64,000 nucleotides of DNA from an uncultured bacterium (GCA_963827235.1 CAWHAE010000016.1:768001-832000); one strand, 5' to 3'; positions 14,031 to 47,542 are shown, counted from the stretch's first letter. The notes: a model not told the origin generated them from the sequence alone. A program made the numbers and translations.

Positions 14031-14085
14031 TGTCATGCATATGTCATAGAGGCATCACAGCAGTGTCATACTGCAGGGGTAGATT
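14031..14085 (+). promoter_or_regulatory. Pho-box-like (OmpR/PhoB family) array with -10 element
   Basis: TGTCAT (14031), TGTCAT (14042), CATCAC (14053), TGTCAT (14064) at exact 11-bp pitch, followed 10 nt later by TAGATT (14080). Confidence 0.65.
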
Positions 14086-20255: not shown

Positions 20256-20868
20256 ACCATCACTCCCGTCCCTACACTCTGCGGTGTACGGTACTGTGGC
20301 AGTTTTTTATCGGTCAAGCCTTCACCGGCAGAGGCCGGCGACGTTTCGTTAGCGGCACACACCTCCGTTGCGGGCTGCGATCGGGACGCGTCACCGGGGA
20401 ACCGTCTGCAGCGGCACGGAGCACCACGCGCGAGACACGCGGCAGGTCGGACGGCTCGCACCGCCGTCCAGAGCAGGATTCTGGACTATTAGAAACATCG
20501 TGTCGTTCTCATTTGGCCCGAGACCACCACGATTCGAGCACGCATCGAAGCAATCATGACTGTTTGCATGAACAGCAGTTGCCAACCGTGGCCTGGCAGT
20601 AGTATGGTGGGACAGTCGTGTGTCTGGTTCGGCCGGACATAGCAGCGGCTGTTGCGACAGCAGAGAGGACCCGTTCACCGGTCAGCGAACAGCTTGGGCT
20701 GGAAGCTGCTTGCCGGCACGAATCGGCATCACGCCAGCTCCGGAAGCCGGACGGATGCTCGCGTTCGCCGGTGAAACATAGCAGGCGCCGCTCGACGATG
20801 CGCCCACTGGAGGGAGACGCTGCAAAGCTGCATCCTCGCGCGTGCAGCGCATGGCACGACGCCCATCC

Positions 20869-20952
20869 ACTGAAAGCCGGCTACCCGTCGCGAGATAGGG
20901 CCACGGCACCAATGGTCTCGGACTGACCGAGACAGCCCTGCTGCCGGCGCCA
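20869..20952 (+). ncRNA. Degenerate c-di-GMP-I (GEMM) riboswitch-like element
   Basis: Colinear with the riboswitch at 30441: ACCCGTCGCGAGATAGGG..CCAATGGTCTCGG..CCGAGACAGCCC..TGCC. The GGTAAA and CAAAG ligand-pocket segments are substituted. Confidence 0.6.
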
Positions 20953-21056
20953 ACCTTATCGCGTCCTCCTGGACGTACGTGGGAGGTGTCCAGTACGAAA
21001 AATCTGGTAGGCCGGCTCCGGGAGCTCATCCGATAGAGTTCAACAGAAAGCACGAC

Positions 21057-22703
21057 ATGCGATCGGTATATTCCCTGGTTCTTGCGTTCGGGCTCGTAGC
21101 TCTCGGCATGCCTCGTGCAACCGCGAGCGCGGAGACTGTGAACGTCACTATCGCCAGCGTGACTGTTGCTCCCAGCACGATTCAGCAGACAGATACCGTG
21201 AGCTTGAGCACGTCGGTAACCAGCTTCTCCTCCCTGGCCAACGTGATCGTCGACTTCGAGGTGCTCGACTCAGCGAACAACAGTGTCTATCAGACCTGCC
21301 TGACCGGGATTGACCTCACCGCCAACGCACAGCGCAGCTTCTCGGTTCCCTGGCTGGTCCCCGCCGGCCTGCCGGCAGGCACATATCAGCTCCGGACCGG
21401 CGCGATCAACGCCTGGTGGTCGTACACCTATGCCTGGAGCGACACGGCCGCGGCGATCTCGGTCGAGGGCACCAGCACGAGTATCAGTATCGTGAGCGGC
21501 TCGGTCACTCCGGCTACACTAGCCCCGTCCGGCACCGCCAGCCTGGCCGCCGTGGTGGGCAGCACAGCGGCCTTGTCCGGTGCCCTCGTCGATTTCGAGA
21601 TCTACGACGGGCAGAACAACCGGGTCTTCCAGACCTACCAAAGCGGAATTGCTCTCGCGGCCAACGCCCAGCAGACCGTCACGGCTTTGTGGACTGTTCC
21701 GCCGAGCCAGCCGGGCGGCATCTATCTGCTGCGCGTAGGCGTATTCGACGGGACGTGGTCCTACCGTTATGCCTGGCTCTCCCCAGCCGCGAGCTTCACC
21801 ATCACGGCTCCTCCACCAGCCGGCCCGCCGGGCTCGTCTGCTGTGGCATTCGGTGTGGAGATTCCGGGAGACCTCTGGAATCCGTCGGTGATCGACAGCT
21901 TCACCGCGATGGTTGGTACGGCGCCCAAGATCGTCATGTGGTACCAGGACTGGGTCAGCGATAGCGGCTTCCACCTGGCCTCCATGCAAGCGTACGCCGC
22001 ACGGGGTGAGGTACCCGTAGTGACATGGCTTCCAGATGCGGCTGGTTCGTTGCTCAACTTCGATGCCGCGGTTGCGAGTGGCAGCTACGATGGTTTCCTG
22101 CACCAGTGGGCGCAGGCGGCCGCAGCCTGGGGCCATCCGTTTTACCTGCGATTTGCCCCCGAAATGAATGGTCCCTGGGAAGGATTCTCACCCGGCGTCA
22201 ACGGCAATACGACGGCCGACTATGTCGCGATGTGGCGGCACGTGCACGATCTCTTCGTGCAGGACGGCGCCGTCAACGTCCGCTGGGTTTGGTGCCCGAA
22301 CATCGATTCATACGGCTCGACTCCCTACGCAGCCGTCTATCCGGGCGATGCGTACGTGGACTGGGTCGGCTTCGACGGCTACAACTGGGGGCACTACGAT
22401 CAGTGGCATTGGTGGACCTCGCTGCACGACGTGTTCGCGCTATCGTATGCCGATCTCACGGCTCTCACGAGCAAGCCAATTATGATTGGCGAGACGGCGT
22501 CCACGGAAATCGGCGGAGACAAGGCGGCCTGGATTACCGAGGGATTCCTGAACGACATCCCCGCGTACTTTCCCCGCGTCCGTGCCGTGATCTGGTTTGA
22601 CGAGGACAAAGAGGTCGATTGGCGGGTGAACTCCTCACAGTCCTCGCTTGCCGCGTTCCAGCAGGTGGCAGCTTCCCCACTTTACCAGGGTCAGCTTCCA
22701 TAG
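21057..22703 (+). CDS. Secreted GH26 glycoside hydrolase with two N-terminal Ig-like modules
   Basis: Signal peptide; LRFAPEMNGPW (acid/base), YPGDAYVDWVGFDGYNWG, KPIMIGETAS (nucleophile), WF..DKE.DWR. Confidence 0.9.
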   Translation: MRSVYSLVLAFGLVALGMPRATASAETVNVTIASVTVAPSTIQQTDTVSLSTSVTSFSSLANVIVDFEVLDSANNSVYQTCLTGIDLTANAQRSFSVPWLVPAGLPAGTYQLRTGAINAWWSYTYAWSDTAAAISVEGTSTSISIVSGSVTPATLAPSGTASLAAVVGSTAALSGALVDFEIYDGQNNRVFQTYQSGIALAANAQQTVTALWTVPPSQPGGIYLLRVGVFDGTWSYRYAWLSPAASFTITAPPPAGPPGSSAVAFGVEIPGDLWNPSVIDSFTAMVGTAPKIVMWYQDWVSDSGFHLASMQAYAARGEVPVVTWLPDAAGSLLNFDAAVASGSYDGFLHQWAQAAAAWGHPFYLRFAPEMNGPWEGFSPGVNGNTTADYVAMWRHVHDLFVQDGAVNVRWVWCPNIDSYGSTPYAAVYPGDAYVDWVGFDGYNWGHYDQWHWWTSLHDVFALSYADLTALTSKPIMIGETASTEIGGDKAAWITEGFLNDIPAYFPRVRAVIWFDEDKEVDWRVNSSQSSLAAFQQVAASPLYQGQLP

Positions 22704-22811
22704 GGACGAGCGCGATACAACGTCACGGAGCGTCCAGCCGGGTCTGCTGCCGAACAGACGGAGGCGCGGCCACGCTCGGTTTCGGCAACGCAAGCGACCG
22801 GCACGGAGCGA

Positions 22812-24176
22812 TCATGGAGCACGCCTCTGATAGACCGGCGAGGCCACGACCTGCCGGTATGCCGCGAGCGTGGCAGGAGAAGAGTCTACTCGCCAGTCTT
22901 CCTCCTTGTTCTCATCGAACCAGACCACTGCCCGAACTCGCGGGAAACTGGCGGGTAGGTCGTGAAGCAACCAGTCCACGATCCAGGTTGGCTTGTTCCC
23001 GCCCAGCTCGGTAGAGCCGATCTCCGAAATCATGATCGGTTTTGACGAAAGTCCCATCAAGCTCTCGATCGAGGGACCGAACAGCTGGTACCCACTTATC
23101 CATGTGTGAATATCTCCATTCGGTCCCCAATTGTACCCGTCCAGTCCCATCCAGTCGACGTATGCATCACCGGGATAGACGGAAGCAAACGGCACGCTGC
23201 CTTCAAACTCGATGTTGGGCGCCCACACCCATTGCACGTTCGTCGCGTGCTCCGCGGCGAATAAGTCATGAATATGTCGCCAGGCAGCTACAAATGTTTC
23301 CGCGGTGTTTCCATTTACGCCCGGGCTCCAGGCGTTCCAGTTGCCGTTCTCCTCCCCGGCGAAACGCAGGAGGGTCGGCTTCCGGTACGCAGCAGCATCG
23401 CGTGCATACTGCTGGATAAACGTGTCGTACGATCCATCCAGGATTTTCCCGTCGGGCACGTCGGGCTCCCACGAGATCATCGGCGTCACTCCGCGACGGC
23501 TGTATTCGCGCAGGAGACCGGTGTTGAGATTGCGGGCATCGGGCGAGAGCCACGATTGGTAGTAGTTCACGATCGCCGGCATTCGCCCTGTGAGCTTGGC
23601 GTACTGATCCACCACCCCCGGATCGCTCTCGGCTCCCGGCATCCAGGCACCCAGAGCGATCGTGTTGGGGGCAGCCACGACGAAGAGATCGGTACAACAG
23701 CTCTCCGCGTAGTGAGTCGTCCAGTCTGCACTGAATACGTTGACCAGCGCGTGGTAACTGCCCGCCGGCTGCGTCGCAGGAATAGCCCACGTTGCCGAAA
23801 GAGGCTTGTAGCTGCCCGCCGGCAGGTTGAGCGTGGCTCGATAGGCATACACGCTCGACCACGTTGGGCTGTACACCTCGACCGAGACGCTAACGCCCGT
23901 GAGTGCCATGCTCGATGCGATTGCCGTGTGCAAGACTGTTCGCCTGCCGGCCAGGTGTGCGGAAGGCTGCGTGGTGAGGTCAGCTATCGAGATCGTGACG
24001 CCGTCGATTGTGGCTGGTGCGCGCACCGCGTCGCTCGGATGGTACCTGGGGCCGGCAGTTGGCAGACCCAGGAAAGGCCCTACGTGGGGTCCGGTCGACT
24101 CGGCGCGCAGCACCTGCACGGCGACATAGGTCACGATGAGCAGCCCCACCACGACAGTCACCGCCCTGCGATTCAT
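22812..24176 (-). CDS. GH26 glycoside hydrolase with N-terminal anchor/signal and one Ig-like module
   Basis: ISWEP, LRFAGEENGNW, YPGDAYVDWMGLDGYNWG, KPIMISEIG. Confidence 0.9.
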   Translation of the reverse strand: MNRRAVTVVVGLLIVTYVAVQVLRAESTGPHVGPFLGLPTAGPRYHPSDAVRAPATIDGVTISIADLTTQPSAHLAGRRTVLHTAIASSMALTGVSVSVEVYSPTWSSVYAYRATLNLPAGSYKPLSATWAIPATQPAGSYHALVNVFSADWTTHYAESCCTDLFVVAAPNTIALGAWMPGAESDPGVVDQYAKLTGRMPAIVNYYQSWLSPDARNLNTGLLREYSRRGVTPMISWEPDVPDGKILDGSYDTFIQQYARDAAAYRKPTLLRFAGEENGNWNAWSPGVNGNTAETFVAAWRHIHDLFAAEHATNVQWVWAPNIEFEGSVPFASVYPGDAYVDWMGLDGYNWGPNGDIHTWISGYQLFGPSIESLMGLSSKPIMISEIGSTELGGNKPTWIVDWLLHDLPASFPRVRAVVWFDENKEEDWRVDSSPATLAAYRQVVASPVYQRRAP

Positions 24177-24442
24177 GTATATGGCGACTATCCTGGCGGT
24201 GCGTGGACTGGACCGTTACGTTGATCGTACTGCATATTGAACCTTGGTAGGCACGCAGATGTGCTCGAACCAGGCTCAACGGTACCGACAAGACCGCGGA
24301 GCCGCCTTGCAGCGGGCGCTCTCGTCGTCGATTCTCGACGTCGCATCCCGAGCGACCCATCTCTCAGCCTCGTAGTGTACGTGTTGCGCTGCCCTGGCGA
24401 CGGCCACGCTGGGCCCGCGGCTACATCCATAGCCATAGGAGA

Positions 24443-25882
24443 GTGATAGCTGTGCCCGACCTTGGGATCAGACTCGACTGGCCGAGCGTGCCCGGCTATG
24501 TGATGCTGTTTCTGATCAGCATCATTGGCTTCCGGCTGCTCTACTACTTTGACAGCTACTTCTTTCACTGGCGTCTCTATCGCAAAGTGCAGCGGGTCAC
24601 CAACGACGACCTTCGAGCCCTGGCTGAGTTACCGTTCGTCAAGATCCAGGTTACGACCGCGGGAACAGTTGGTAGCACCGAGGTGATTCGCCGGGGCATC
24701 CAGAACGTGGTCGACCTGGCCATGGAAGCCCCAGAGCTCTACGGCGGCAAGATCAGCGTGGAAGTGATTACCATGCCGTCCGAACAGGTGCAGGCCTTGG
24801 GAGCGGAATTCGCAGGCGCCCCTATACCGGTCGAGATCCTGGTCGTCCCTCCGGAGTACCAGACGCCGCTCGGCACGAAGCTGAAAGCCCGGCAGATGCA
24901 CTGGATCGTAGAGAGGCGGCGGCAGGGATACAACCGAAAGCCGGGGCGAACGTTCATCGTCCACTACGACGAAGACAGCGTGATGATGCCGCGCGAGATG
25001 CGCAAGCTTATCCGGTACCTGGCCACGACGGACAAGAAGCTGACCGAAGGTCCCATCTATTATCCCCTTGAGTATGACCGTGCCAGCCTGATCTGCCAGG
25101 CCATGGAAGCCAATCGACCGGTCGGATGCTTCGAGTGTCGCGAGGTGATGGAAGCCGGCACTCCGCTGCATCTGCACGGGTCGAATCTCGTGCTTGACGA
25201 GGAACTGGAAAACGACCTCGGCTGGGACCTCGGCACGCTCGGCGGCCAGGCGTTCATAGCTGAAGACTTCGTCTTCGGTATGCTGGCCTACCTGAAGGAG
25301 GGGCCGCAGGTCTTCGGCTGGCACGGCGCGGTCATGCTGGAGGAACCGCCGTTCTCCCTCAGGAGCGCCTTCAAGCAGCGCTATCGGTGGGTGCTGGGCA
25401 CCTTGCAAGGCCTGTCGATGATGCATCGCATGCCGGAGTACCATCGCCTGGCGCCTCGGGAGCGCTTCAATCTGATCTGGGGCACAAGGTATCGTATCCT
25501 GACTTTCGCGCTGGGTCTGCCTACCGGCATTACGTCGTTGCTCTACCTGCTCTATCAGGCCTGGCTCCTGATCACCGGGCACAGCTTTCTGCCGCTGCCG
25601 GCACCGTTCATCGTCTGGCTGATCATCGTCGGCGTACTCTGGATCAACTCGCTGCTGATCGGCGTGTGGTACAACCTGGCCGAGCCGGTGCCGGCGCCGG
25701 CAGCCACGCGCTGGATGACGGCGATGCGGGTGCTGACCGTGGCGCCCATCGCCGGCGTGTCGGAGAGCACTGCTGCCGTCTGGGCCGTCTTCAACTGGTT
25801 GCTGGGCAACCGCGCGGTCTCCTGGCAGCCGACGCCCAAGACTGTAGAGGCCGATGGCATCGTCAGCCGCGGAGTGGCCTAG
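24443..25882 (+). CDS. Membrane GT2 glycosyltransferase, Egghead/BRE-3 (beta-1,4-mannosyltransferase)-like, with synthase motifs
   Basis: GGAG SD and GTG start; N-terminal TM; TKLKARQMHW, IVHYDEDS, EGPIYY, HGSNL, IAEDFVFG, EEPPFS...KQRYRW; C-terminal TMs ending W.PTPK. Confidence 0.85.
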   Translation: MIAVPDLGIRLDWPSVPGYVMLFLISIIGFRLLYYFDSYFFHWRLYRKVQRVTNDDLRALAELPFVKIQVTTAGTVGSTEVIRRGIQNVVDLAMEAPELYGGKISVEVITMPSEQVQALGAEFAGAPIPVEILVVPPEYQTPLGTKLKARQMHWIVERRRQGYNRKPGRTFIVHYDEDSVMMPREMRKLIRYLATTDKKLTEGPIYYPLEYDRASLICQAMEANRPVGCFECREVMEAGTPLHLHGSNLVLDEELENDLGWDLGTLGGQAFIAEDFVFGMLAYLKEGPQVFGWHGAVMLEEPPFSLRSAFKQRYRWVLGTLQGLSMMHRMPEYHRLAPRERFNLIWGTRYRILTFALGLPTGITSLLYLLYQAWLLITGHSFLPLPAPFIVWLIIVGVLWINSLLIGVWYNLAEPVPAPAATRWMTAMRVLTVAPIAGVSESTAAVWAVFNWLLGNRAVSWQPTPKTVEADGIVSRGVA

Positions 25883-28428: not shown

Positions 28429-28681
28429 ATCTCGGGCGCGACACCCAGCGGACGTCGCGATGTCGACTGCACGGTCTGCCTCTTCCCCGGAAGCGCTGCC
28501 CGGGGTATCGTGGGATGTACCGGGACGTCCTGCCGGCTGACCACGATGCGCGGCCTAGTATCCGCACCGACCCCGCAAGCCTCTTTGAGCGCGTACCGCG
28601 CTTCAGTGAACGATATGTCCAATGCCTCGCAGCCTGCCACATGGTGGCCCTTGCGATGTGATGCAGAGAACGGTCGGCGCA

Positions 28682-29989
28682 ATGATCAAGCGAAACTCGG
28701 TGGCGGTAGTCACCTGGCTGCTGGCCCTGCTCACGCTCCTGGCTCAGCCGATAGACGGCGCTCCCGCCGCGGTACGGGCGAGTGCTCAGCACGCTGCCGG
28801 CGGCACGGTCCGCATCACGGGCCTGCTGGCACGACCTACGACGGCGCTGGCAGGCAGCAGCGTCATCCTGCAGACGGCGGTAGCCGCGCAGACCGCGTTC
28901 AGAGCGCTCATCGTATCGATCGAGGTCTACGGTCCGACGTGGAAGAGCGTCTACGCCATTCGCGCGTCGGTCGACATCGCGGCTCAAGGATCCCGCTCGG
29001 TCGCGGCGTCGTGGAGTATCCCGTCTTCCGAGGCAACCGGCACCTACCATGCGCTGGTGAACGTCTTCAGCGGCGACTGGACGATCCACTATGCGGAGCG
29101 CTGTTGCATCGACCTTCACGTGACCAACGCCTCCGGCGCCATCGCACTCGGCGCCTGGGTCCCTGGGGCTGACTCGAATCCGGCCGTTATTGACCAGTAC
29201 GCGCGTCTCACGGGCAGATACCCCGCCATCGTCAACTACTACCAATCGTGGTTACCTCCCAACCCGCGCGATCTCAACCTGGGGCTGCTGCGAGAATACG
29301 AGCGCCGGGGCATCACGCCGATGATCTCGTGGGAGCCCGACGTGCCGGACGAGAAGATCATCGGAGGCTCGTACGACTCGTTCATCCGCCGGTACGCGCT
29401 GGACGCCGCCACGTTCGGGAAGACCATTCTGCTGCGCTTCGCTTGGGAGGAAAACGGGAGCTGGACCGCGTGGAGCCCCGGTGTGAACGGTAACACCGCG
29501 CTCACCTTCATCGCGGCCTGGCGCCACATCCACGACATCTTCGTGGGGGAACACGCGACCAACGTCCAGTGGGTGTGGGCGCCCAACGTCGTCTTTCCCG
29601 GAAGCGCTCCCTACTCTGGCCTGTATCCCGGGGACGACTACGTCGATTGGCTGGGACTCGACGGCTACAACTGGGGAACTTCGACCACTTACAGCTACTG
29701 GTCCAGCGGTGACCAGATCTTCGGTCCCTCGATCGAAAGCCTGATGGCATTGTCGAGCAAGCCGATCATGATCTCAGAAATCGGATCGGCGGAGCAAGGC
29801 GGAAACAAGGCCACCTGGATAACGGACTGGTTCCTGCGTGATTTGCCCACCAGCTTCCCGCGCGTGCGAGCGGTCGTGTGGTTCGATCAGAACAAGGAAG
29901 CCGACTGGCAGATAGACTCGTCTGCCTCGTCCCTGGCTGCCTTCAGGCAGGTCGTGGCATCACCGCTCTACCAGGGACGGCTACCGTAG
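28682..29989 (+). CDS. Secreted GH26 glycoside hydrolase with one Ig-like module (paralogue of 22812-24176)
   Basis: Signal peptide; ISWEP, LRFAWEENGSW, YPGDDYVDWLGLDGYNWG, KPIMISEIG. Confidence 0.9.
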   Translation: MIKRNSVAVVTWLLALLTLLAQPIDGAPAAVRASAQHAAGGTVRITGLLARPTTALAGSSVILQTAVAAQTAFRALIVSIEVYGPTWKSVYAIRASVDIAAQGSRSVAASWSIPSSEATGTYHALVNVFSGDWTIHYAERCCIDLHVTNASGAIALGAWVPGADSNPAVIDQYARLTGRYPAIVNYYQSWLPPNPRDLNLGLLREYERRGITPMISWEPDVPDEKIIGGSYDSFIRRYALDAATFGKTILLRFAWEENGSWTAWSPGVNGNTALTFIAAWRHIHDIFVGEHATNVQWVWAPNVVFPGSAPYSGLYPGDDYVDWLGLDGYNWGTSTTYSYWSSGDQIFGPSIESLMALSSKPIMISEIGSAEQGGNKATWITDWFLRDLPTSFPRVRAVVWFDQNKEADWQIDSSASSLAAFRQVVASPLYQGRLP

Positions 29990-30440
29990 CCCGATTCTCC
30001 TCTATCGGTCGCCGGACTAGTGCGTAGTGCTGGGCTTGCGGCGAGGACCGCGTTCATTCCGCCCTGCTTGATCGAACCTGACCAGTACTTATTTCCCCCG
30101 GTTCGCAGGACTACTGTCCCAGGTGTGAGGACTAGCACAACGCCTGCCATACCACTAGCATTGTGTCTGCAGGGAGACCCGCAATGTAACTGCCGCTAGT
30201 GAGGTCGTCTTGGCAGCACATGTGAGATTCGTCCGCGATCGGTCGACGTACGACAATGCTCAGGTCATGGCGGGTGCCCGGTTCGCGCGGCAACCAGGCT
30301 GCCTGCTCGTACGCACACCGGTGACCCGCCGGCTCGTGTCAGCATGCAGCAACGCTGCGAGCAGCGGAGGGGAGAGTCTTAGCGTCACGTAGACGATAAT
30401 TGGTCGTGGCGACCGGTAACACACCGGCGCGGCGTGACGC

Positions 30441-30523
30441 CGCTGTAAAAAGGTAAACCCATCGCGAGGTGGGGACACAAAGCCAAGGGTCTCGGCGCTG
30501 CCGAGATAGCCCGGTTGCCAGCA
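30441..30523 (+). ncRNA. Cyclic di-GMP-I (GEMM) riboswitch
   Basis: GGTAAACCCATC-GCGA-GGTGGGGACACAAAGCCAAGGGTCTCGG..CCGAGATAGCCCGGTTGCC matches the class-I consensus: GNRA loop, GGYAAACC/GGACRCAAAG, P3, P1 GCTG/CAGC. About 110 nt upstream of the GH26 start. Confidence 0.88.
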
Positions 30524-30631
30524 CCACAAGCTGACTACCCTCCTGTGTCGCGACCGGAGGTTCCAAGCCCGAAGAACCTGGTGCATCGGCTCCGGCAACT
30601 CACCAAAACAGAGTTAGGCGGAGATCACGAC

Positions 30632-33082: not shown

Positions 33083-33162
33083 CAGGACATAGCGGCACGG
33101 CGCAGACCACGGAGGCCCGCAGAGCCCTGCCTGGCCGTGTTGCCCTCTGGCAGAGAGTAAGC

Positions 33163-33211
33163 GTGGATTGCATCCGGCCCGCGTACTCTCTCGCGGCCGG
33201 ATGCAATCCAC
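33163..33211. terminator. 17-bp perfect inverted repeat between convergent genes (possible bidirectional terminator)
   Basis: GTGGATTGCATCCGGCC-N15-GGCCGGATGCAATCCAC; no U tract. Confidence 0.55.
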
Positions 33212-33279
33212 CCCTCATGCATGCGGGAAGCGAAACACCGGTGAGACGGCGATCAGTTGGCGACGTGGGGCTGATTCGC

Positions 33280-34266
33280 TCAGTGGGAGTGGCTGAGCCA
33301 TCGCCAGGTATAGCCGTAGAGCGTGGCATACGTGGACAGCGCCTTGAGCGGCCGAAACCCCAGCCGCCACTGGCGCTTGGGATCGAAATATAGGCTGATG
33401 AACAGGCTGGGCACGAACAGCGCGGGCGAAAGCGCCACCAGCAGCTTGCCATACCACCGGTCCAGCGGCACCACCTGCATCCGCCGCTCCGGTGCCAGCA
33501 ACGCCTCCTGCGCGTGCCCCATGCCGTAGCTGAACCCCTTTCGCACCAGGGCACGCACGTGGCTGGGCGGGCCATGGTATACCCAGCAGTGGCCGGGAAT
33601 CACGAAGCGATAGCCCGCCCGGCGGATGCGGAAGAAGAACTCCGTGTCCTCGCCTGCCTGGAGTTCCTCGTTGAAGCCGCCCACCTCCTCGAAGACCGAT
33701 CGCCGCACCAGGCAGCAGGTGGTGGTGATGCCCGTGAAGCCGTAGTGATCCAGGGTCGGATTGCTCTCCGTGTCCCGTTCCATCACCGGATAGACCCACC
33801 GCGGCACCTCCTCAGCGACCCGCTGCTGAAACCGGCTCGCGTCGGGCGGCAGCAACTTCGAGGTGCCCGTCACGCCGATCGATGGATCGGCCCGCATGCT
33901 CTCGACCAGCCGCTCGAGGTCGCGGTCGCCGCCGAAGTACGCGTCGTCGTCGACGAAGAGGATGAACTCGCCGCGCGTCTGGGCCACGCCGAGGTTGCGT
34001 GCCCGACCAGCCGGATTGACGCCCCGTACTACGACGACCTCAAAGTCGGCAAATGTCTGCCCGTCCAGGCTCTGCAGCACTCGCTCTACGTCCCCACTCC
34101 ACGACGCGATCACCACGGCCACGGTGCGCGCCGGCACCCTGACGGTACCCGTGTCGGGCTGCTCCCGGGCCGCCGTGCCTTCGATAGCCCGCACGTCGTA
34201 GGTCCGCGCCGGCGATCTGGACCTGATGCTCGTATGTGCTTGATCCACCCTCATGCTCCCCACCAT
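33280..34266 (-). CDS. GT2 glycosyltransferase (twin A)
   Basis: VAVVIAS, ARNLGV..RGEFILFVDDD, VFEEVGGFNE..AGEDTEF. GGAG SD before ATG 34266. Confidence 0.88.
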   Translation of the reverse strand: MVGSMRVDQAHTSIRSRSPARTYDVRAIEGTAAREQPDTGTVRVPARTVAVVIASWSGDVERVLQSLDGQTFADFEVVVVRGVNPAGRARNLGVAQTRGEFILFVDDDAYFGGDRDLERLVESMRADPSIGVTGTSKLLPPDASRFQQRVAEEVPRWVYPVMERDTESNPTLDHYGFTGITTTCCLVRRSVFEEVGGFNEELQAGEDTEFFFRIRRAGYRFVIPGHCWVYHGPPSHVRALVRKGFSYGMGHAQEALLAPERRMQVVPLDRWYGKLLVALSPALFVPSLFISLYFDPKRQWRLGFRPLKALSTYATLYGYTWRWLSHSH

Positions 34267-35151
34267 GCTCGTCTTTTCTCCAGCTTGATGCAACGCCCGG
34301 CGCCCCGGCGTGGCCGTCAACCGGATGGCGTGGCAAACGCTGCCCGATTTCCCATGTGGCGGCGCGTCGGTCGCGCTACTACACCCCTTCTCTACGTGGC
34401 CGGCATAGCGTTCAGTGAGGGTGACTGAACCACCTCCAGGTATAGCCGTAGAGCGTGGCATACGTGGACAGCGCCTTGAGCGGCCGAAACCCCAGCCGCC
34501 ACTGGCGCTTGGGATCGAAATATAGGCTGATGAACAGGCTGGGCACGAACAGCGCGGGCGAAAGCGCCACCAGCAGCTTGCCATACCACCGGTCCAGCGG
34601 CACCACCTGCATCCGCCGCTCCGGTGCCAGCAACGCCTCCTGCGCGTGCCCCATGCCGTAGCTGAACCCCTTTCGCACCAGGGCACGCACGTGGCTGGGC
34701 GGGCCATGGTATACCCAGCAGTGGCCGGGAATCACGAAGCGATAGCCCGCCCGGCGGATGCGGAAGAAGAACTCCGTGTCCTGGCCGGTCTGCAGGTTCT
34801 CGTTGAAGCCGCCCACCTCCTCGAAGACCGATCGCCGCACCAGGCAGCAGGTGGTGGTGATGCCCGTGAAGCCGTAGTGATCCAGGGTCGGATTGCTCTC
34901 CGTGTCCCGTTCCATCACCGGATAGACCCACCGCGGCACCTCCTCAGCGACCCGCTGCTGAAACCGGCTCGCGTCGGGCGGCAGCAACTTCGAGGTGCCC
35001 GTCACGCCGATCGATGGATCGGCCCGCATGCTCTCGACCAGCCGCTCGAGGTCGCGGTCGCCGCCGAAGTACGCGTCGTCGTCGACGAAGAGGATGAACT
35101 CGCCGCGCGTCTGGGCCACGCCGAGGTTGCGTGCCCGACCAGCCGGATTGA
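33304..35151. repeat. Near-identical ~716-bp direct duplication (33304-34019 and 34436-35151; offset 1132)
   Basis: Compared by eye: identical except 6 substitutions at 33651-33666 vs 34783-34798. Confidence 0.9.
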
Positions 35152-35410
35152 TGCCGCGCACCACCACCACGGCGACATCGGTGAACGACTGGCGATCCAG
35201 GCTAGCCAGCACACGCTCAACGTTGCCGTTCCAGGAAGGTACGATCACGGCTACCTCGGCCGTCCAAGGGAGCGGCTCGTCCGGCGGTGGGTGACCGTCC
35301 GTGCCGCCGATCACGATGCTCCGACGGACCGGCCGGTTGCTTGACTCCTTGTGCGCGCCGGACGACTGTGGCACCGGTACTCTGTCGCTGACTGTTTTGC
35401 TAGCTTGCAT
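34412..35410 (-). CDS. GT2 glycosyltransferase (twin B)
   Basis: VAVIVPSWN, FVDDD, GGFNENLQTGQDTEF. Start overlaps the stop of the upstream GT4. Confidence 0.88.
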   Translation of the reverse strand: MQASKTVSDRVPVPQSSGAHKESSNRPVRRSIVIGGTDGHPPPDEPLPWTAEVAVIVPSWNGNVERVLASLDRQSFTDVAVVVVRGINPAGRARNLGVAQTRGEFILFVDDDAYFGGDRDLERLVESMRADPSIGVTGTSKLLPPDASRFQQRVAEEVPRWVYPVMERDTESNPTLDHYGFTGITTTCCLVRRSVFEEVGGFNENLQTGQDTEFFFRIRRAGYRFVIPGHCWVYHGPPSHVRALVRKGFSYGMGHAQEALLAPERRMQVVPLDRWYGKLLVALSPALFVPSLFISLYFDPKRQWRLGFRPLKALSTYATLYGYTWRWFSHPH

Positions 35411-36563
35411 GATGCCCTGCTCCCGCGAAGACTGCACTTTTCTTCCTTGCACGAACGTAGGCCTCCAGAGTCTGGCCCGCCGTGCGATCCCACGAGAACG
35501 ATCGCGCGCGTGCCGACCCCCGGGCCACCAGGTCTGCACGCAGACTCGTATCGCCGACCACGCAGAGCAGGCCGTCGGCGAGATCTTGCTCGTCGGTCGG
35601 ATCGATGAGCACCGCGGCGTCGCCGCCAACTTCGGCCATCGACGTGGATTGGCTCGTAACCACCGGCACCTCACAAGCCATCGCCTCGAGCACCGGTAGA
35701 CCGAAGCCTTCGATAATCGATGGGCTAGCGAGCACATCGGCCGCCGAGTAGACTGCCGGCAGATCCTCTTCCGGTACCTTCGGCAGCTCTAGAACCCGCT
35801 CACGCAAGCCGAGCTCGTCGAGGAGCGCCGGTACCGGATCGTCGAACCGCCGGTCCGGCTCACCGACGAGAACCAGATTGTGCGGAATCTGGTGCCGGAT
35901 GCGACCGAAGGCTCGCACAATTCCGGCGACGTTCTTATGTGGACGGCGCGCTCCAACTGCCAGCACGTATTTCACGGGCAGTGCGTAGCGCTCCCTTGCC
36001 TTCTCCTTCTGTGTCGCCGTGGCAGGACGATAGATTGACCCCGCAGCCAGCGGAGTGACGTCGATGGTAGCAATCGGCATCCTGTAGTACCGGCTCAAGT
36101 CGCGGCGAGTGGCCTCGGAGACTACGAGCACGGCCGCGGCCCGACGCAGCGCTGCCCACGTCCAGCCCCGATAGCACGCACGGGCCCACCGCCTGGGCAT
36201 GTAGTCGGGATAGCGCTCGAAGATGAGATCGTGAATGGTGACCACAAGCGGACAGGGGCAAGCGACGGGCGCCGCGAAGTACGGAACATGGAGCACGTCG
36301 AGATGGCGGCGAGTCGCGATGAGAGGCAGCAGCATCTGGCTGCGGGGCGAGTAAAGCGGTACCCCGCATTCTACTGCTTCCACGTTTGGTGCCGCCAAGA
36401 GGGTCCGCAAATCGAAGCGTGTGTTTGGGACTCCGGGACTCCAGAGCACCACGAACGTATGCTCGCGCCCCAGGTCAATCCCATGCCGCAGCAGCTCAAA
36501 TGCATAACGCCCGATTCCGTGGTACCGATCCTGGATGAACCGCGCGTCGAAGCCGATTCTCAT
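35400..36563 (-). CDS. GT4 glycosyltransferase (MtfB/WbdB mannosyltransferase-like)
   Basis: MRIGFDAR..GIGRY, VVTIHDL, VSEAT, VG..PHKN, EGFGLPVLEAMAC, FSW..TA. Confidence 0.92.
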   Translation of the reverse strand: MRIGFDARFIQDRYHGIGRYAFELLRHGIDLGREHTFVVLWSPGVPNTRFDLRTLLAAPNVEAVECGVPLYSPRSQMLLPLIATRRHLDVLHVPYFAAPVACPCPLVVTIHDLIFERYPDYMPRRWARACYRGWTWAALRRAAAVLVVSEATRRDLSRYYRMPIATIDVTPLAAGSIYRPATATQKEKARERYALPVKYVLAVGARRPHKNVAGIVRAFGRIRHQIPHNLVLVGEPDRRFDDPVPALLDELGLRERVLELPKVPEEDLPAVYSAADVLASPSIIEGFGLPVLEAMACEVPVVTSQSTSMAEVGGDAAVLIDPTDEQDLADGLLCVVGDTSLRADLVARGSARARSFSWDRTAGQTLEAYVRARKKSAVFAGAGHHAS

Positions 36564-36675
36564 CGCCGTTGTCTGCCACCAGCTGACGGGATTTCTGCGT
36601 TGCCCGGGATAGCGGGATACGTATGGTCTTTGGCCAACATGGTCATGCCCTTCCGTACAGATCGGCACCACCCAC

Positions 36676-38382
36676 CTACCTGCGGTGCCCTGGAGCAGAG
36701 TCCGAGAGTGCGACGGCGGATCTCGGCGCCTGGTATGTCTGCGGCAAGCGGTAGAGGGCAAGCACGCCATATGTGGGATCTTTGAACGCGAACAGGCGCC
36801 TGCCGTGCGTCTGAAGCCATCGGTAGAGGGCCGGCGTGCCGGCGTCGTAGCCGTTGAAGGTAAGGGCCGAGCTCACGATCGCGTATTGCTCGTGGTACTG
36901 CTCGAGCTGCTGAACCGAGCCCCAGTAGTCATCCTGATAATCCAGGCCATACAGCAGCCGATTCGCCGGAAGATTCGTCGCCGCGATGCGACTGCCGGCC
37001 GGTACGTGAGCCTGCATGTAGACGAACAGCCGCTGGAAGCCATTGTCCGGCGTAGTATGGCGGTCCACCCAGTTGTAGCCCGCCCAGACCACGAAGCCGA
37101 GCATACACAGCGACGTGGCCACTGGTGCCCAGCGGAGCGCCATCGACGGCAGGCAGCCCGAGCGAAGCAAGAGCGTCGCCGCTGTCACGTCTGCCAGCAG
37201 CGTCGGTGCCACGAGGTAGTAGTAGTATTGCGCCTCATTCGTGCCGAACTTGATGCTGTAAGTCTGCAGCACGTAGGCACACACGGTCCAGACCGCCAGC
37301 AGGCGCACCGCACCGTCGTGCCGAAGCAGCAGGTAGACGACGGCAACAGCGCCGAGGGCGATCAACGCGTATGTAGTGGCGTATTGGGCCAAGTCAGCCA
37401 GCAGGGCATGCACGAAGGACGGCGTCGCAGCGGCGGCCGGAGTCGCTGGGCTTACGGCGTGGCCCGACACCGGGCCAGGATTCGCCCGTCCGGTGGGCGA
37501 CGGGCTACCGAATCCCGAGACGTGCAGCACGCCAAACAGGCGTCCAATGCCGTCGAACTTGGCTTGCGAGAAATTGCTCCACCCGCCTGCCGCGACGACG
37601 CAGGCGACGAGCGCGGCGTACATGGCGAAGGGAATAGCGCCGATCAGCAGGGCCACGCGGCGCGGTATCGACCAATTTAGCGCGAAGCATGCCGCGAGCG
37701 GCAGCAGTGTGTGGAACGCTGTTTCCTCCTCGGTCAGCAGCGCGGCGCCAAATGCGAGACCTGCTACGCAAGCCCGCCGGACCCCTGGCTTGCCGCCTGC
37801 GGCCGTGAGCAATGCGGCGTAGCCGGCCAGCACCCAGAACAGTGCCGAGGGTTGCAGCAAGTTGCGGCTGCTCATCGCAATCATGAACGGGTCCAGGGAG
37901 AAAATCAGTGCTGCTGCGAGGCCTGCCCACCAGCCCGCGACGCGGTGCGCAATCGCGAACAGCAGGGCCGCGGACATCCCGGCAAACGCTACGTTCAGCC
38001 ACCTCGAATCGAGCACGAGCTGAACCGTAGTGGCGTTCTGGAAGAACAGCCGCAGATAGCCGCCTTCGATGAGAAAGAGCATTGGAGGATGGACGAAGGC
38101 CGGGTCGCCCTGGAAGTTAAGCGTGAGAGAATGCGCCACGCTCGCCGAGAGCTGGCTGTAGATGATCTCGTCACTGTACACGTCGAACGCGTGGGCAAGA
38201 TTGACGGCGCGCAATAGCGCCGCAAGTGCGCCGGTGATCAGCGCGGCCATCCATACGGCCCGGGTGATATTCCGGTCCGCCCGCACGGCAGCAGACAGAC
38301 TTTGGCTTGTCATGCCTGCCCACGGCAATCGAGCGCGCAAAGATTGGATCGGCGGTACGAACACTCTTCCGGTGAGATCCAT
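36676..38382 (-). CDS. GT-C (PMT_2/ArnT-like) membrane glycosyltransferase
   Basis: DVYSDEIIY, FVHPPMLFL, R.LN, multi-TM region, C-terminal soluble domain. Start uncertain (38313-38433). Confidence 0.8.
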   Translation of the reverse strand: MDLTGRVFVPPIQSLRARLPWAGMTSQSLSAAVRADRNITRAVWMAALITGALAALLRAVNLAHAFDVYSDEIIYSQLSASVAHSLTLNFQGDPAFVHPPMLFLIEGGYLRLFFQNATTVQLVLDSRWLNVAFAGMSAALLFAIAHRVAGWWAGLAAALIFSLDPFMIAMSSRNLLQPSALFWVLAGYAALLTAAGGKPGVRRACVAGLAFGAALLTEEETAFHTLLPLAACFALNWSIPRRVALLIGAIPFAMYAALVACVVAAGGWSNFSQAKFDGIGRLFGVLHVSGFGSPSPTGRANPGPVSGHAVSPATPAAAATPSFVHALLADLAQYATTYALIALGAVAVVYLLLRHDGAVRLLAVWTVCAYVLQTYSIKFGTNEAQYYYYLVAPTLLADVTAATLLLRSGCLPSMALRWAPVATSLCMLGFVVWAGYNWVDRHTTPDNGFQRLFVYMQAHVPAGSRIAATNLPANRLLYGLDYQDDYWGSVQQLEQYHEQYAIVSSALTFNGYDAGTPALYRWLQTHGRRLFAFKDPTYGVLALYRLPQTYQAPRSAVALSDSAPGHRR

Positions 38383-39894
38383 AGGATGGGGATTTCCTTG
38401 CCTTGGATTGTTCTGGAGGGACCGATGCGGCACAGCAGTCCGATGGAACGGATCACCCTATGAAGGAAGGGAGTGCCGGAAATGCAGCACAGGCCTCCAG
38501 ACGGCCCGCCTCATCGTGACGACGGCCTGGAGAGTGCACATCGTGCGGCAGGGCAGGTCGACCGAGGACCGCCCACCCTGTCTCCCGCCCTGTCGTCGAG
38601 CGGCCTAGCTGATCCCCACAGTGTTAGCGACCGGCGCCGCCTCGCGACCCAAGGCAACTCATGCCGTGCGTCAAGCCTCAGGCATCGTCGCCCGATTAGC
38701 ACGATGAACATTATAGCATAAGCATTGCGTGTGTTTGTCAATCTCGGTTGTCAACACAGCAATGTACGATTGACGTTTCCTTTTCGACTCCGCTGAGTGC
38801 GCGACAGCCATCTATCCACAATTCATTCGATTGCCATACTGGTCACGGCTATTTCGGAATGTCAACGATATGCTCGTCCTCTGGGAGCGATCAGCCCACG
38901 CCAGAGAGCAGATCTATTCATAACCTCCGTGGCCTTGATTCAGGCCATATAGACGTACATCGCACCGAATTGCGGCATATCCGGCTAAACTCTGTTGGTC
39001 ATTGCCACCAAACTGCTTGCATTCTAGCGACTTGGTCCCTTACGATACGTATTGCAAGGACGCGGACTATGGCTGAGCCGATAGAATTGGTGGCACGTAC
39101 CGCAGATGCTGTGGTATTGGATCAGTTTGATCCGGCTTAGGCGGACATTTGGTCCCAGCGTTTAGCAGAAGAATCTACTTGAGATCGCAGCTCGTTCTCA
39201 ACAGCGAGCATGGTGCTCTACAACAGTCATCGCCGAAAGTCTCTCGCTTCGCGAATGGCGATTGTAGTCTGACGTCGTGATCCAGCGCTGGATCGCGGCA
39301 GTTGTACCATTGGGTTGTACGCCGGTCGTACCGCCCGAAGGTGAATCGTGCGTGGTTGCCGCGGGAGCCGAGCAGTCGGCACCGGCAGGAGCCGCGAGTT
39401 TCAGATTGAGCACAGCGCGGAAAGCTCACTAACCGGCCGTCGGCCGGTGTGGACAGGATCCATGCTCTCGAGCACCAGCTCGAATGGCTCCTGAACGCAG
39501 CTCTCTGCAGCAGATGTTGAACCTAGCGGAAGGGCCTAGTCTGCCTGACGAAGATGCCGACAGTGCCAAACGCGGAGCGTGCCGGTGCGGTTGGGCGGGC
39601 CCGAGTCGGGTCCGCATCAATGGTGATGCACGGGCAGATCACCTTCACGCAGTGGCAGTCAACAGACCGGAAAGGTAGGGACTACTCTATGCGCACCTGT
39701 ACGCGGTGAGCCCTTCTGATCGGTAGCCAGCGATAACGCCGTCCCTCACGGCGCCGAACACCCTGTTCGTTTACAGTCGCCATCCAGGCATCGACTGCGT
39801 GGAATAGCTCGTCGCGTTCCCGTGCAGTTGCCATTACGCGGAGCGGAGCAGCTTTGCTGCGTCCATTCAGCCCGCAACCTTGTTCCAGTGAGGA

Positions 39895-41457
39895 ATGGAC
39901 ATGCTCAAAATTCTGATGGTCATTTCCGAAGCGCCGCCCGTCGCAAGCGGAGTGGCGCGTGTTGCAGGTCATCTGCAAGATGGTATGGAAGCGCTGGGCC
40001 ATCGCATCGACGTGATCTCGCTGCGCGATGTGCCACGTTTCGTGAAAGGTGAGGTGCGGATTTCCAGCATGTTGTGGATGGCGCCTCGCCTCTTGCTGCG
40101 CCGCCTGAGCGAATACGATATCGTGCATATCCACGGCCCTGTGCCCACCTTCAGCGATATCGCGCTCCTGCTCAGCGCGGTTCGCGCCGGGCGTAACGGC
40201 CCGCGGGTCGTCTACACACACCATTGCGAGGTCGACTTGCAACAGCGAGGTTACAGAGCGCTCTGCACGACTTACAACTGGATGCACAAGCACATGGCGA
40301 AGCTGGCCGATCAAGTCATCGTCTCCACGCCAGCCTACGCCGCCGAGCTCGGCCGCTTCGTCGCCGACAAGCACATCGCCACCGTGCCCTGGGGCGTGGA
40401 GAGCGAATGGTACGAGGACGACACGCCCAAGGCCGATCGATTCACGGTCCTGTTCGTCGGGCAGCTCCGTCCCTATAAGGGAGTGGACACGCTCCTACAC
40501 GCCGCCGCCGTGCTGCCGGACGTCGACTTCCAGGTCATTGGATCCGGATTCCTCGAAGCAGATGTTCGGCGCATGGCCGAGGCTGGAGGGCTGACCAACC
40601 TGGCGTTGCGGGGAAGGGTGAGCGACGAGGAGCTGCGGGCAGCCTATGCGGCGTCGCATGTTCTGGTCCTACCGTCCACCTCGCGCCAGGAAGCATTTGG
40701 CCTGGTGCTGCTCGAGGGCATGGTTGCCGGTTGCATCCCGGTCGCATCGGCTTTGCCGGGCGTCGCCGATATCGTGGGAAACGCGGGCCTGTGCTTCCCG
40801 GTCGGTGACTTCGAGGCACTCGCGTCTATCCTGGGCCGGCTACGTGACGAGCCGCTGGCCCGCGAAGCCTACCGGCATCGGGCAAAGGAGCGGGCGCGCT
40901 CCTATTCATGGAGCCGCACTATCCAGGCGCATCGCTCCATCTACAGCCAGCTTGTTGCGCTGCAGCGATTCGGCAAGGCGCTGCGGACAGAGGACGGACA
41001 CGCCCAAGCGCTGCATGTGCTTCTAGAATCCGCGATAGACAACCTGGATGCGTCGGCGGGCTCCATCATGGTGCTCGAGCGGGACAACAGAGTGATGGAG
41101 CGGGACAACCTGGTGCTGCGGCTGCTGGCGACCAGTGGCCTGCCGACAAGTCTGCCCGGTAGGATTCGGCAGCCTCTGGGCCAGGGTATCGCCGGCTTCG
41201 TTGCCTCTCGCAGGATGCCGCTGCTGCTGCCGGAAGCGTTCGACAGCGACCTCACCCGTGATCTGGCACGCCACGATCGCCGTTCGCACATCCACTCAGC
41301 CATCTCCGTGCCGATTCATACCGAGGACGAGGTACTCGGCGTGATCAACCTCTCCAGCCATGTCGAGCAGCGGCGCTTCCAGGAAGCCGATCTGCAGTGG
41401 CTGAGCGGCGTGGCCCGCCACGCCGCGGATAGTCTGCGGAGGGCAATCCCGGCCTAG
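39895..41457 (+). CDS. GT4 glycosyltransferase fused to C-terminal GAF domain
   Basis: LFVGQLRPYKGV, VLPS..EAFGLVLLEGM; GAF part GSIMV..L..ATSGL..GQGIAGFVA..SAISVPI..VLGVINL..RF..DL. Confidence 0.9.
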   Translation: MDMLKILMVISEAPPVASGVARVAGHLQDGMEALGHRIDVISLRDVPRFVKGEVRISSMLWMAPRLLLRRLSEYDIVHIHGPVPTFSDIALLLSAVRAGRNGPRVVYTHHCEVDLQQRGYRALCTTYNWMHKHMAKLADQVIVSTPAYAAELGRFVADKHIATVPWGVESEWYEDDTPKADRFTVLFVGQLRPYKGVDTLLHAAAVLPDVDFQVIGSGFLEADVRRMAEAGGLTNLALRGRVSDEELRAAYAASHVLVLPSTSRQEAFGLVLLEGMVAGCIPVASALPGVADIVGNAGLCFPVGDFEALASILGRLRDEPLAREAYRHRAKERARSYSWSRTIQAHRSIYSQLVALQRFGKALRTEDGHAQALHVLLESAIDNLDASAGSIMVLERDNRVMERDNLVLRLLATSGLPTSLPGRIRQPLGQGIAGFVASRRMPLLLPEAFDSDLTRDLARHDRRSHIHSAISVPIHTEDEVLGVINLSSHVEQRRFQEADLQWLSGVARHAADSLRRAIPA

Positions 41458-43886: not shown

Positions 43887-43977
43887 AATCTCCCAACTTT
43901 CCACGCCACTGCCAACATCTTCCTGGATCATCCGCGCGCCCGGCCGCGGCGGAAAGCGGGCTCCATCTGCCCGCCCG

Positions 43978-46597: not shown

Positions 46598-46628
46598 TAC
46601 GGCCTCCTTGCAGAGTGAATGACCGGAC

Positions 46629-47510: not shown

Positions 47511-47542
47511 GTTCGAGAAACCTTTCTGTTTTCTGCCAACCA

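Follow-up and report, generated by a model that had tools for sequence, protein, structure and literature searches.

A putative synthase-dependent beta-glycan locus in a Chloroflexota genome, with a BcsA-like core apparently split over two genes

Synthase-dependent exopolysaccharide systems have been described mostly in Proteobacteria and Firmicutes, and to our knowledge very little is known about the matrix or wall glycans of Chloroflexota. In the alginate system, Alg44 carries its PilZ domain N-terminal to a single transmembrane (TM) helix and a membrane-fusion-like domain. In the cellulose synthase BcsA, the gating loop as described in PMC8892547 lies between TM6 and TM7, pivots at R499/E514 and holds UDP with its FXVTXK motif, and TM7-TM8 are followed by the PilZ domain, whose RxxxR arginine releases the loop when cyclic di-GMP (c-di-GMP) binds. 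Activation by c-di-GMP is also described, in PMC5567048, for the mixed-linkage beta-glucan synthase BgsA. In this study, we analysed a 64,000-nt stretch of DNA (CAWHAE010000016.1:768001-832000, hereafter the window) within a 1.22-Mb contig of an 8-Mb Chloroflexota metagenome-assembled genome (MAG; completeness 95.9%, contamination 9%). The window encodes a membrane-embedded family 2 glycosyltransferase (GT2syn), a partner in which a PilZ-like segment is fused to a GT-C glycosyltransferase (PilZ-GT-C), and four family 26 glycoside hydrolases (GH26a to GH26d). The initial annotation had listed these genes together with twin GT2s, a GT4, a second GT-C, a GT4-GAF fusion and two c-di-GMP-I riboswitches, one of them degenerate, and each of these elements was found where it had been placed or nearby (Table 1). 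The synthase-type glycan synthesis and remodelling system that it proposed still matches no described pathway, and its interpretation as a whole is partly supported. We favour, with modest confidence, the reading that the locus makes a beta-glycan, either secreted or attached to the wall, through a synthase-dependent system gated in trans by PilZ, and that GH26 enzymes trim the product, which is most likely gluco-configured.

By analogy, the system would work like the PilZ-gated Bcs and Alg systems but belongs to neither: BcsB/C were not found, the GT2 and the hydrolase come from other families, and PilZ is carried by a GT-C. With BcsA-BcsB-BcsZ it shares a membrane GT2 with a QxxRW motif and a similar fold that includes the channel region (Z 22.9), a putative PilZ domain after two TM helices behind a gating-loop-like segment, and putatively cognate endo-hydrolases of clan GH-A encoded alongside. 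Unlike in Bcs, the TM-TM-PilZ module belongs to a second polypeptide, where it is joined to a GT-C, GT2syn has a single N-terminal TM helix, the hydrolase is GH26/GH113 and not GH8, and a Pfam scan of the 41 larger open reading frames (ORFs) of the window (large ORFs of 17-46 kb included, small ORFs left out) found no BcsB/BcsC. Alg8/Alg44 likewise has PilZ in trans: its GT2 has a membrane-bound partner that carries PilZ together with an extracytoplasmic domain. Here two TM helices precede PilZ and a catalytic GT-C follows it, and neither the polymer nor the accessory genes are those of the alginate system. E. coli BcsA-BcsG is similar in that a polymer-modifying membrane enzyme is attached to the synthase, and the BcsA-BcsG complex structures 9fmz and 9fmv were among the fold matches of GT2syn; however, BcsG is a phosphoethanolamine transferase, whereas the enzyme here is a GT39/PMT_2-like glycosyltransferase. 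The mixed-linkage beta-glucan synthases (S. meliloti BgsA, the Romboutsia ilealis synthase, fungal Tft1 and plant CslF6) are also GT2s, with a product diagnosed by lichenase, and lichenase-like GH26 genes accompany GT2syn, a likeness by description; BgsA differs in that it binds c-di-GMP via a non-PilZ C-terminal domain. The GH26 domain of CelH (CtLic26A, PDB 2bv9) is about 40% identical, by eye, over the 274-aa catalytic domain with both catalytic Glu residues aligned, while the GH26 proteins here bear Wzt_C/FxLYD-like modules, are encoded beside a synthase and have a predicted activity. Egghead of Drosophila and PcManGT of P. calidifontis share with GT2syn the family PF13632, a similar size and a minimal cellulose-synthase-like fold (the fold being compared with PcManGT), and we know of no case in which either travels with endo-hydrolases or PilZ. 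No description of the GT2syn family, the PilZ-GT-C fusion or this gene set was found in the literature searched, from whose scope subscription-only papers were excluded.

GT2syn falls in the same Pfam family as Egghead, and a fused homologue (P0197) is called 'egghead protein' by JGI. Its ORF extends from 24443 to 25882, with the gene caller's start at 24452 and a GGAGA ribosome-binding site 9 nt 5' of that start. Across 72 GT2syn sequences, D173, E271-D272, QRYRW (residues 309-313) and the tail W458-x-P-T-P-K463 are invariant or near-invariant, with R310 and R312 invariant and Q309 and W313 at least 90% conserved. The AlphaFold2 (AF2) model of GT2syn (predicted local distance difference test, pLDDT, 91.6) was compared with solved structures by VIA, which matched it to E. 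coli BcsA (Z 22.9), hyaluronan synthases (about 20), yeast Chs1 (20.3) and plant CesA (20.2). The matches to synthases, at Z 18-23, covered 360-395 aligned residues including the TM region (model residues 3-476), whereas soluble GT-A enzymes reached about 15 only. The predicted fold is minimal cellulose-synthase-like, with a GT-A domain and a TM channel domain. Sequence identity with BcsA is about 12-14%, and a profile of 12 GT2syn sequences gave 0 matches at E<=0.01 among PDB sequences. An exhaustive phmmer search of 1.84 billion representatives returned 60 GT2syn matches at E<=1e-30 and 425 at E<=0.001. Homologues are 55-77% identical in Chloroflexota (Ktedonobacteria and others) and about 50-58% identical in Actinomycetota (Arthrobacter, Sinomonas, Nocardioides, Rhodococcus, Nocardia and Acidimicrobiia), and relatives in Asgard and Nitrososphaerota archaea are 26-35% identical. 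The family forms a compact group, well separated in sequence, and the genome holds one copy. In the Asgard loci (L076-L081), the gene order is PF00535 GT2, DUF2064, GT2syn and a GT87-like GT-C, the last being a homologue of a Ktedonobacterales neighbour gene; further archaeal relatives occur in Nitrososphaerota/Thermoproteota loci (L083-L087), and the protein atlas holds related eukaryotic clusters (Chytridiomycota, Chlorophyta).

The comparison with R. sphaeroides BcsA aligned GT2syn model residues 2-476 to chain residues 86-516 and therefore stops at the gating loop, and the WxPTPK motif of GT2syn at 458-463 lies near where this alignment ends, as judged from the range ends and not residue by residue. 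The GT2syn stop codon overlaps the start codon of PilZ-GT-C (TAGTG), and PilZ-GT-C opens with two TM helices and a PilZ-like domain, as does the region after the BcsA gating loop. Because of these four features, that is, the end of the BcsA alignment, the WxPTPK tail, the TAGTG overlap and the two TM helices with PilZ, GT2syn and PilZ-GT-C may be read as one BcsA-like core that is divided between two genes. Complex prediction for GT2syn and residues 1-200 of its partner gave a median run of 0.74 (0.72-0.76), the best of three controls being 0.00; the score mark used was reached by 116 of 157 solved complexes versus 2 of 215 mismatched pairs. The runs agreed in at least 64% of contacts, with a partner pLDDT of at least 65, and the predicted interface sets partner residues 10-36 and 51-67 against GT2syn residues 36-46 and 366-432. 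The prediction supports binding between the two proteins without showing it.

PilZ-GT-C is composed of two TM helices (residues 8-66), a PilZ-like segment (about residues 67-175, nt 26080-26406), a GT39/PMT_2-like GT-C part and, at its C-terminus, extracytoplasmic domains. Its match to Pfam PMT_2 is 20.5 bits, under the cut-off of 26.1, and precomputed Pfam annotation places PF13231 and/or PF02366 in 19 of 23 homologues of the GT-C part. The first outside loop of this GT-C family (23 proteins, about 500-550 aa) contains a nearly invariant FQDEA motif, in which D267 and E268 are at least 90% conserved. The sequence MRRLRA precedes the first helix and RTTWRRA follows the second, a distribution of charges that places PilZ in the cytoplasm and the DE motif of the GT-C outside and is likewise consistent with a split BcsA. 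An N-terminal extension of about 240 aa, with two TM helices and a PilZ-like segment, is present in six of the 23 homologues, and all six proteins with it, at 32-52% identity, keep RRxxxR and (D/N)xSxxG, which here read RRASVR (residues 78-83) and DSSAGG (residues 112-117). A profile of the six PilZ-like segments found a sole PDB sequence match at E<=10, the PilZ domain of B. subtilis YpfA (MotI/DgrA), at E 0.0088 and with an alignment that runs through both motifs. The AF2 model of residues 64-178 (115 aa) has six strands (pLDDT 74.4), and 21 of the 22 Foldseek matches listed up to rank 25 are PilZ/c-di-GMP receptor structures or BcsA, the one exception being titled only 'methyltransferase complex'. 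The matched folds include MotI/DgrA, YcgR, MrkH, PlzA, PP4397, VCA0042, PA0012 and the PilZ domains of CeSA, BcsA and Alg44, with TM-scores of about 0.55 at the top. On the motifs and the modelled fold we accept the segment as a divergent PilZ domain, and its binding of c-di-GMP is plausible; the genome has 27 GGDEF matches.

The strongest evidence that the genes form one system comes from the fusions of GT2syn homologues. Among 55 long homologues (>834 aa), 48 are GT2syn-GH113 fusions, and the others join GT2syn to GH26 (1), a PMT-type GT-C (1), TIG (2) or sortase (1), or have GT4-GAF fused N-terminally to GT2syn (2; P0146 and P0150, the former with a GtrA-type TM domain between). These natural fusions mean that every partner class listed by the initial annotation is somewhere covalently joined to GT2syn. 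The GT2syn-GH113 fusions have an additional TM helix ahead of the hydrolase domain, which would place the hydrolase outside, at the channel exit. In P0198, P0199, P0200 and P0203-P0207, GT2syn is fused with TIG, sortase or long N-terminal regions of 300-770 residues.

The gene neighbourhood points in the same direction. Of four same-genus genomes two have GT2syn, and in both a PilZ-GT-C orthologue (54% identity) and then the gene for an NHL-repeat protein directly follow; in the longer of these loci GT4-GAF and a GT2x orthologue come next, and GT4 and two GH26 genes are on the same contig. Among 80 public loci (27 Chloroflexota, 41 Actinomycetota, 11 archaeal and 1 Bacteroidota), neighbours were counted by targeted tblastn, single-linkage clustering of ORFs having been dropped since it merged families through fusion proteins. 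GT2syn has a GH26- or GH113-like neighbour within 7 kb, mostly directly downstream, in 23/27 Chloroflexota and 24/41 Actinomycetota loci (47/68 combined), and in none of the 11 archaeal loci or the 1 Bacteroidota locus; some loci without such a neighbour are short contigs. The gene directly downstream of GT2syn is GH113-like in Ktedonobacteria and divergent GH26-like in Actinomycetota, the Arthrobacter-type hydrolase being marginally GH26-like (Pfam E 4.7e-6 over 41 aa, best PDB E 0.0018). GT-Cs of PMT_2, PIG-V-like and GT87-like types adjoin GT2syn in Ktedonobacterales, Acidimicrobiia and Asgard loci. The genome has eight CtLic26A-like GH26 domains, four of them within 12 kb around the sole GT2syn gene, and this clustering is not due to chance. 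The fusions and the shared neighbourhood together show that GT2, GT-C, GH26 and GT4-GAF are functionally linked in one system, and this part of the initial annotation is upheld. In five of the 41 Actinomycetota loci, an AT3-SGNH acyltransferase is encoded near GT2syn (L029 from Arthrobacter, at 13433-15637, L047, L055, L058 and L063), which hints at O-acylation of the product there.

The polymer was approached through the hydrolases. All four GH26 proteins of the window match Pfam PF02156 (30.6-37.9 bits, cut-off 20.2), begin with a hydrophobic signal or anchor and carry Pro/Thr/Ser-rich linkers as well as one to five copies each of a Wzt_C/FxLYD-like module of about 125 aa, and the catalytic residues E275 and E385 (GH26b numbering) are invariant in six of six aligned sequences. 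In a PDB search with GH26b, the GH26 domain of C. thermocellum 'Endoglucanase H' (CtLic26A) was found at E 2.6e-51 over 274 aa, while the best mannanase reached 4.5e-10 and a beta-1,3-xylanase 5.8e-7. Taylor et al. 2005 describe CtLic26A as a lichenase in their title. The GH26 neighbour of GT2syn in a Ktedonobacterales locus likewise matched CtLic26A (E 1.1e-51). By sequence, the GH26 domains of the window belong to the lichenase branch of CtLic26A and not to the mannanase branch. The beta-mannan product suggested by the initial annotation is weakened because these domains are far nearer to CtLic26A than to mannanases, and this part of its claim is not upheld. As to the polymer itself, a beta-glucan with beta-1,4 or mixed beta-1,3/1,4 linkages is our leading but tentative candidate, mannan or glucomannan is a doubtful one, and the remaining expectation goes to something else; the GH113 partners elsewhere possibly keep a (gluco)mannan in play.

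A second layer of c-di-GMP input may exist at the RNA level. The intact aptamer (gathering score of RF01051, 35) is the sole Rfam gathering match in 64 kb, and over 19000-42000 a looser Rfam scan at E<=5 added only two matches at chance level. The start codon of GH26d is most likely the ATG at 30632, just ahead of a signal peptide, which leaves an expression platform of 109 nt. A terminator scan found no intrinsic terminator 3' of the aptamer. In the folded leader a hairpin pairs the ribosome-binding site GGCGGAG with CUCCGGC, and an alternative pairing with the 3' half of the aptamer can be drawn; the folding z-scores are -0.75 and -0.79, and an ON switch would be a guess. A covariance model (R1) of the six c-di-GMP-I riboswitches of this genome, searched over 1.45 Mb with rough E-values, found one other significant match, at 20865-20951 on the plus strand (23 bits, E 0.0036, many broken pairs), where 65/106 positions match the intact aptamer. 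It lies about 105 nt 5' of the likely start of GH26a (21057), a paralogue of GH26d, so the leader was copied together with the gene and has since decayed or switched its ligand. On sequence likeness it is a true homologous remnant of a c-di-GMP-I riboswitch. The degenerate riboswitch claimed initially is upheld in this sense, but it does not fit the Rfam c-di-GMP-I model: a search of 20780-21000 (221 bases) gave no c-di-GMP family even at E<=10. Of the other five c-di-GMP-I riboswitches of the genome (L088, L089, L090, L092 and L093), three precede genes for a CBM_4_9 protein, for a papain-like protease and for a GHL15-like protein, and two precede ORFs whose products lack a Pfam family; the c-di-GMP riboswitches of this genome seem to control mostly secreted proteins.

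We propose that GT2syn would polymerise a nucleotide-sugar at the cytoplasmic face and, like BcsA, hyaluronan synthases and chitin synthases, pass the chain across the membrane through a channel of its own. GT2syn would end at a gating-loop-like tail, and the two helices and the PilZ barrel would come from the N-terminus of the translationally coupled next gene. Binding of c-di-GMP to PilZ would then act in trans to open the synthase, in the way that Alg44 acts on Alg8, while the GT-C part, with its active site facing outward and tethered to the synthase much as BcsG is to E. coli BcsA, may decorate or transfer the emerging chain, using a polyprenyl-phosphate sugar. GT4-GAF, with a separate ligand sensor, would be another partner on the cytoplasmic side, and the four exported lichenase-like GH26 enzymes would cut or trim the product, one of them under c-di-GMP via the riboswitch. 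We infer a gluco-configured product with a beta-1,4 or mixed beta-1,3/1,4 glucan backbone, possibly branched.

A bolder version, which we hold only tentatively and consider rather doubtful, makes GT2syn the founder of an unrecognised family of minimal cellulose-synthase-like beta-glycan synthases in Chloroflexota and Actinomycetota, with archaeal relatives and always with a clan GH-A hydrolase. Here the TM7-TM8-PilZ module would have been split off and welded to a GT-C, so that a single c-di-GMP-binding polypeptide opens the synthase and also glycosylates the emerging chain outside via a lipid-linked sugar, giving a synthase-dependent/GT-C hybrid that makes a branched, mixed-linkage beta-glucan-like wall or matrix polymer. 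GT2syn offers an entry point into a compact, unstudied GT2 family whose partners (GH113, lichenase-like GH26, GT4-GAF and GT-C) are known from naturally occurring fusions. A 'split BcsA' made by nature could reveal how the PilZ/gating-loop mechanism works when PilZ is supplied in trans, the locus might yield a new polymer of beta-glucan or glucomannan type along with hydrolases that match it, and GH113 clade 5, in the clade context given in PMC9032380, may act on the products of such synthases.

Several observations weigh against a PilZ-gated, glucan-making synthase. The archaeal mannosyltransferase PcManGT, which has four TM helices, fits GT2syn as well as BcsA does (Z 22.1, 321 residues), and the fold therefore leaves processivity unsettled. 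The confident interface of the predicted complex consists of TM helices, not of PilZ against the GT domain, its score may lean on the model's memory of BcsA, and our own alignments were used. Pfam PF07238 gives no match at E<=1 to the whole PilZ-GT-C protein or to the domain alone, and over the whole genome it finds six other genes; against the Pfam PilZ domains of these six, hhalign gave a weak match with a probability of 5.5% and an alignment restricted to the DxSxxG region, and the confidence of the PilZ model is medium only. The c-di-GMP input claimed initially is plausible at the protein level (PilZ motifs and fold) and at the RNA level (riboswitch), but its range is narrow: the PilZ extension occurs in 6/23 GT-C homologues, no riboswitch was found by an Rfam gathering scan of 7 related loci or by R1 at E<0.5 in 83 further related sources, and the two inputs together are confined to a narrow lineage or to this genome. 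The locus has no precursor genes for UDP-Glc or GDP-Man, and contamination of the MAG is estimated at 9%, though the whole locus lies on one contig. The only solved relatives of the Ktedonobacterial GH113-like partners are beta-1,4-mannanases, at a weak E of 3e-11, and the GT-C neighbours of PMT, GT87 and PIG-V type belong to mannosyltransferase families; both favour mannose.

These last points feed an alternative that we consider unlikely, in which GT2syn is an Egghead-like GDP-mannose enzyme making beta-1,4-mannan or glucomannan, and GH26/GH113 are cognate beta-mannanases. It would account for the fusion of 48/55 long homologues to GH113, of which the characterised clades 1-4 are described in PMC9032380 as mannanases or mannobiosidases, and it agrees with the PcManGT match, the JGI label 'egghead protein' on a GT2syn-GT-C fusion, the mannosyltransferase families of the GT-C neighbours and the beta-1,4-mannanases as closest solved relatives of the Ktedonobacterales GH113-like partner. 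However, that GH113 likeness is weak, the clade account of PMC9032380 also includes a large clade 5 that lies near GT2 genes and has an unknown substrate, no GDP-mannose gene is present in the locus, and the E-values of the GH26 domains, in the window as in the Ktedonobacterales locus, are lower for CtLic26A than for mannanases by about 40 orders of magnitude. A glycoconjugate pathway seems to us improbable: a non-processive GT2syn would build a lipid-linked sugar or short glycan, the GT-Cs would transfer it to secreted proteins or wall polymers, and PilZ would regulate the GT-C. The equal PcManGT and BcsA matches, the fusion or adjacency of GT2syn to GT-Cs in bacteria and Asgard archaea, the GtrA/DPMS-type TM domain within the P0146 fusion and the AglJ/dolichyl-phosphate-hexose-transferase-like GT2 at 5210-6175 all suit it, as do the Pro/Thr/Ser-rich linkers, which could be targets of O-glycosylation, yet the conserved QxxRW and gating-loop-like tail, the alignment of the model over the whole TM channel region of BcsA, HAS (hyaluronan synthase), Chs and CesA, and the extracytoplasmic endo-hydrolase fused to the synthase in 49/55 long forms, which is hard to explain without an emerging polymer, argue for a synthase. 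Least probable of all is that there is no single system and the GH26 enzymes are secreted foraging lichenases that go with the GH116/ABC importer/LacI operon beside unrelated glycosyltransferase genes, for while the exported GH26 enzymes with their several modules look like enzymes of degraders, the stretch 41454-51444 contains genes for GH116, an ABC sugar importer and LacI, other c-di-GMP-I riboswitches also precede secreted proteins (CBM_4_9, papain-like protease and GHL15-like) and four more GH26 copies exist elsewhere in the genome, GT2syn adjoins GH26/GH113 in 47/68 bacterial loci and in 49 fusion proteins, GH116 genes were not found in the fetched same-genus loci, and 4/8 of the GH26 copies of the genome flank the sole GT2syn copy.

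Table 1. Features of the locus, with positions counted from the first nucleotide of the window
Feature	Position	Strand	Evidence
NHL-repeat beta-propeller protein (ScyF-like)	19296..20255	-	Pfam NHL E 4.7e-30; NCBIfam ScyF-like match below cut-off
Decayed copy of a c-di-GMP-I riboswitch, GH26a leader	20865..20951	+	Own covariance model, 23 bits; likeness to intact aptamer
GH26a, exported lichenase-like GH26 with two Wzt_C/FxLYD-like modules	20979..22703	+	Pfam; both catalytic Glu kept
GH26b, CtLic26A-like GH26, membrane-anchored or exported	22812..24176	-	Pfam; PDB sequence search
GT2syn, membrane-embedded PF13632 GT2	24452..25882	+	Pfam; AF2 model; motifs
PilZ-GT-C fusion, 848 aa	25882..28428	+	Weak PMT_2 match; Pfam of homologues; motifs; fold
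GH26c, paralogue of GH26b (catalytic domain 74% identical)	28622..29989	+	Pfam; alignment
Intact c-di-GMP-I riboswitch aptamer	30442..30522	+	RF01051, 62.1 bits; 109 nt 5' of GH26d start codon
GH26d, exported GH26 with signal peptide and four to five Wzt_C/FxLYD-like modules	30632..33082 (ORF 30515-33082)	+	Pfam
Twin PF00535 GT2s, GT2x (33280-34707) and GT2y (34412-35737)	33280..35737	-	Pfam; 85% identical
GT4 glycosyltransferase	35400..36770	-	Pfam Glycos_transf_1 E 9e-30
Second GT-C (GT-C2), ArnT/PMT-like	36676..38433	-	Weak Pfam PMT match (E 0.003); protein atlas ArnT/PMT clusters 0.99
GT4-GAF fusion	39895..41457	+	Pfam

The remaining genes of the locus extend this picture. The true start of GH26a is likely the ATG at 21057, before a signal peptide. 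The NHL protein lies outside the interval of the initial annotation and is a probable accessory component, its orthologue standing directly 3' of PilZ-GT-C in both same-genus loci. GT4-GAF is, judging from the fusions, a probable partner of the synthase with a second sensory domain. GT2x and GT2y arose from a tandem duplication of 1132 bp that appears recent, and a single GT2x orthologue adjoins GT4-GAF in one same-genus locus, while a GT4 orthologue shares a contig with the synthase in one same-genus genome. The 3' parts of the twin GT2s (window 33277-34708) are 98% identical in DNA over at least 300 nt, which could reflect a very recent duplication or an assembly duplication in the MAG. BLASTP finds no similarity between the second GT-C and PilZ-GT-C, and NCBIfam has no match for GT2syn, PilZ-GT-C, GH26b, GH26c or GT-C2. 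In line with the initial annotation, the Pfam scan of the 41 larger ORFs contains no Wzx, Wzy, Wzm/Wzt (ABC-2), BcsB/C, Pel or Pga families; the Wzt_C matches in the window are the modules on GH26a and GH26d, and the ABC ATPase at 17041-17850 is MacB/LolD-like.

Further features lie around and between these genes. At 5210-6175 (plus strand) the window encodes an AglJ/dolichyl-phosphate hexose transferase-like GT2 (NCBIfam E 3.7e-40, below cut-off), which could supply polyprenyl-phosphate sugar donors to both GT-Cs, 15-30 kb away. Between the divergent GT-C2 operon and GT4-GAF, 1.46 kb (38434-39894) hold no convincing gene or Rfam match, and the 2-kb bin 38001-40000 has a G+C content of 0.58 versus about 0.64. 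Downstream of the locus, the GH116, ABC sugar importer and LacI genes at 41454-51444 are absent from the fetched same-genus loci and are probably a separate catabolic unit. One GH116 at 43978-46597 (minus strand) appears to be split in two ORFs, of which 45818-46597 encodes positions 2-236 of the N-terminal domain and the overlapping 43978-45972 the remainder of that domain and the catalytic domain, probably owing to a frameshift or assembly error; a second GH116, at 41454-43931, is intact.

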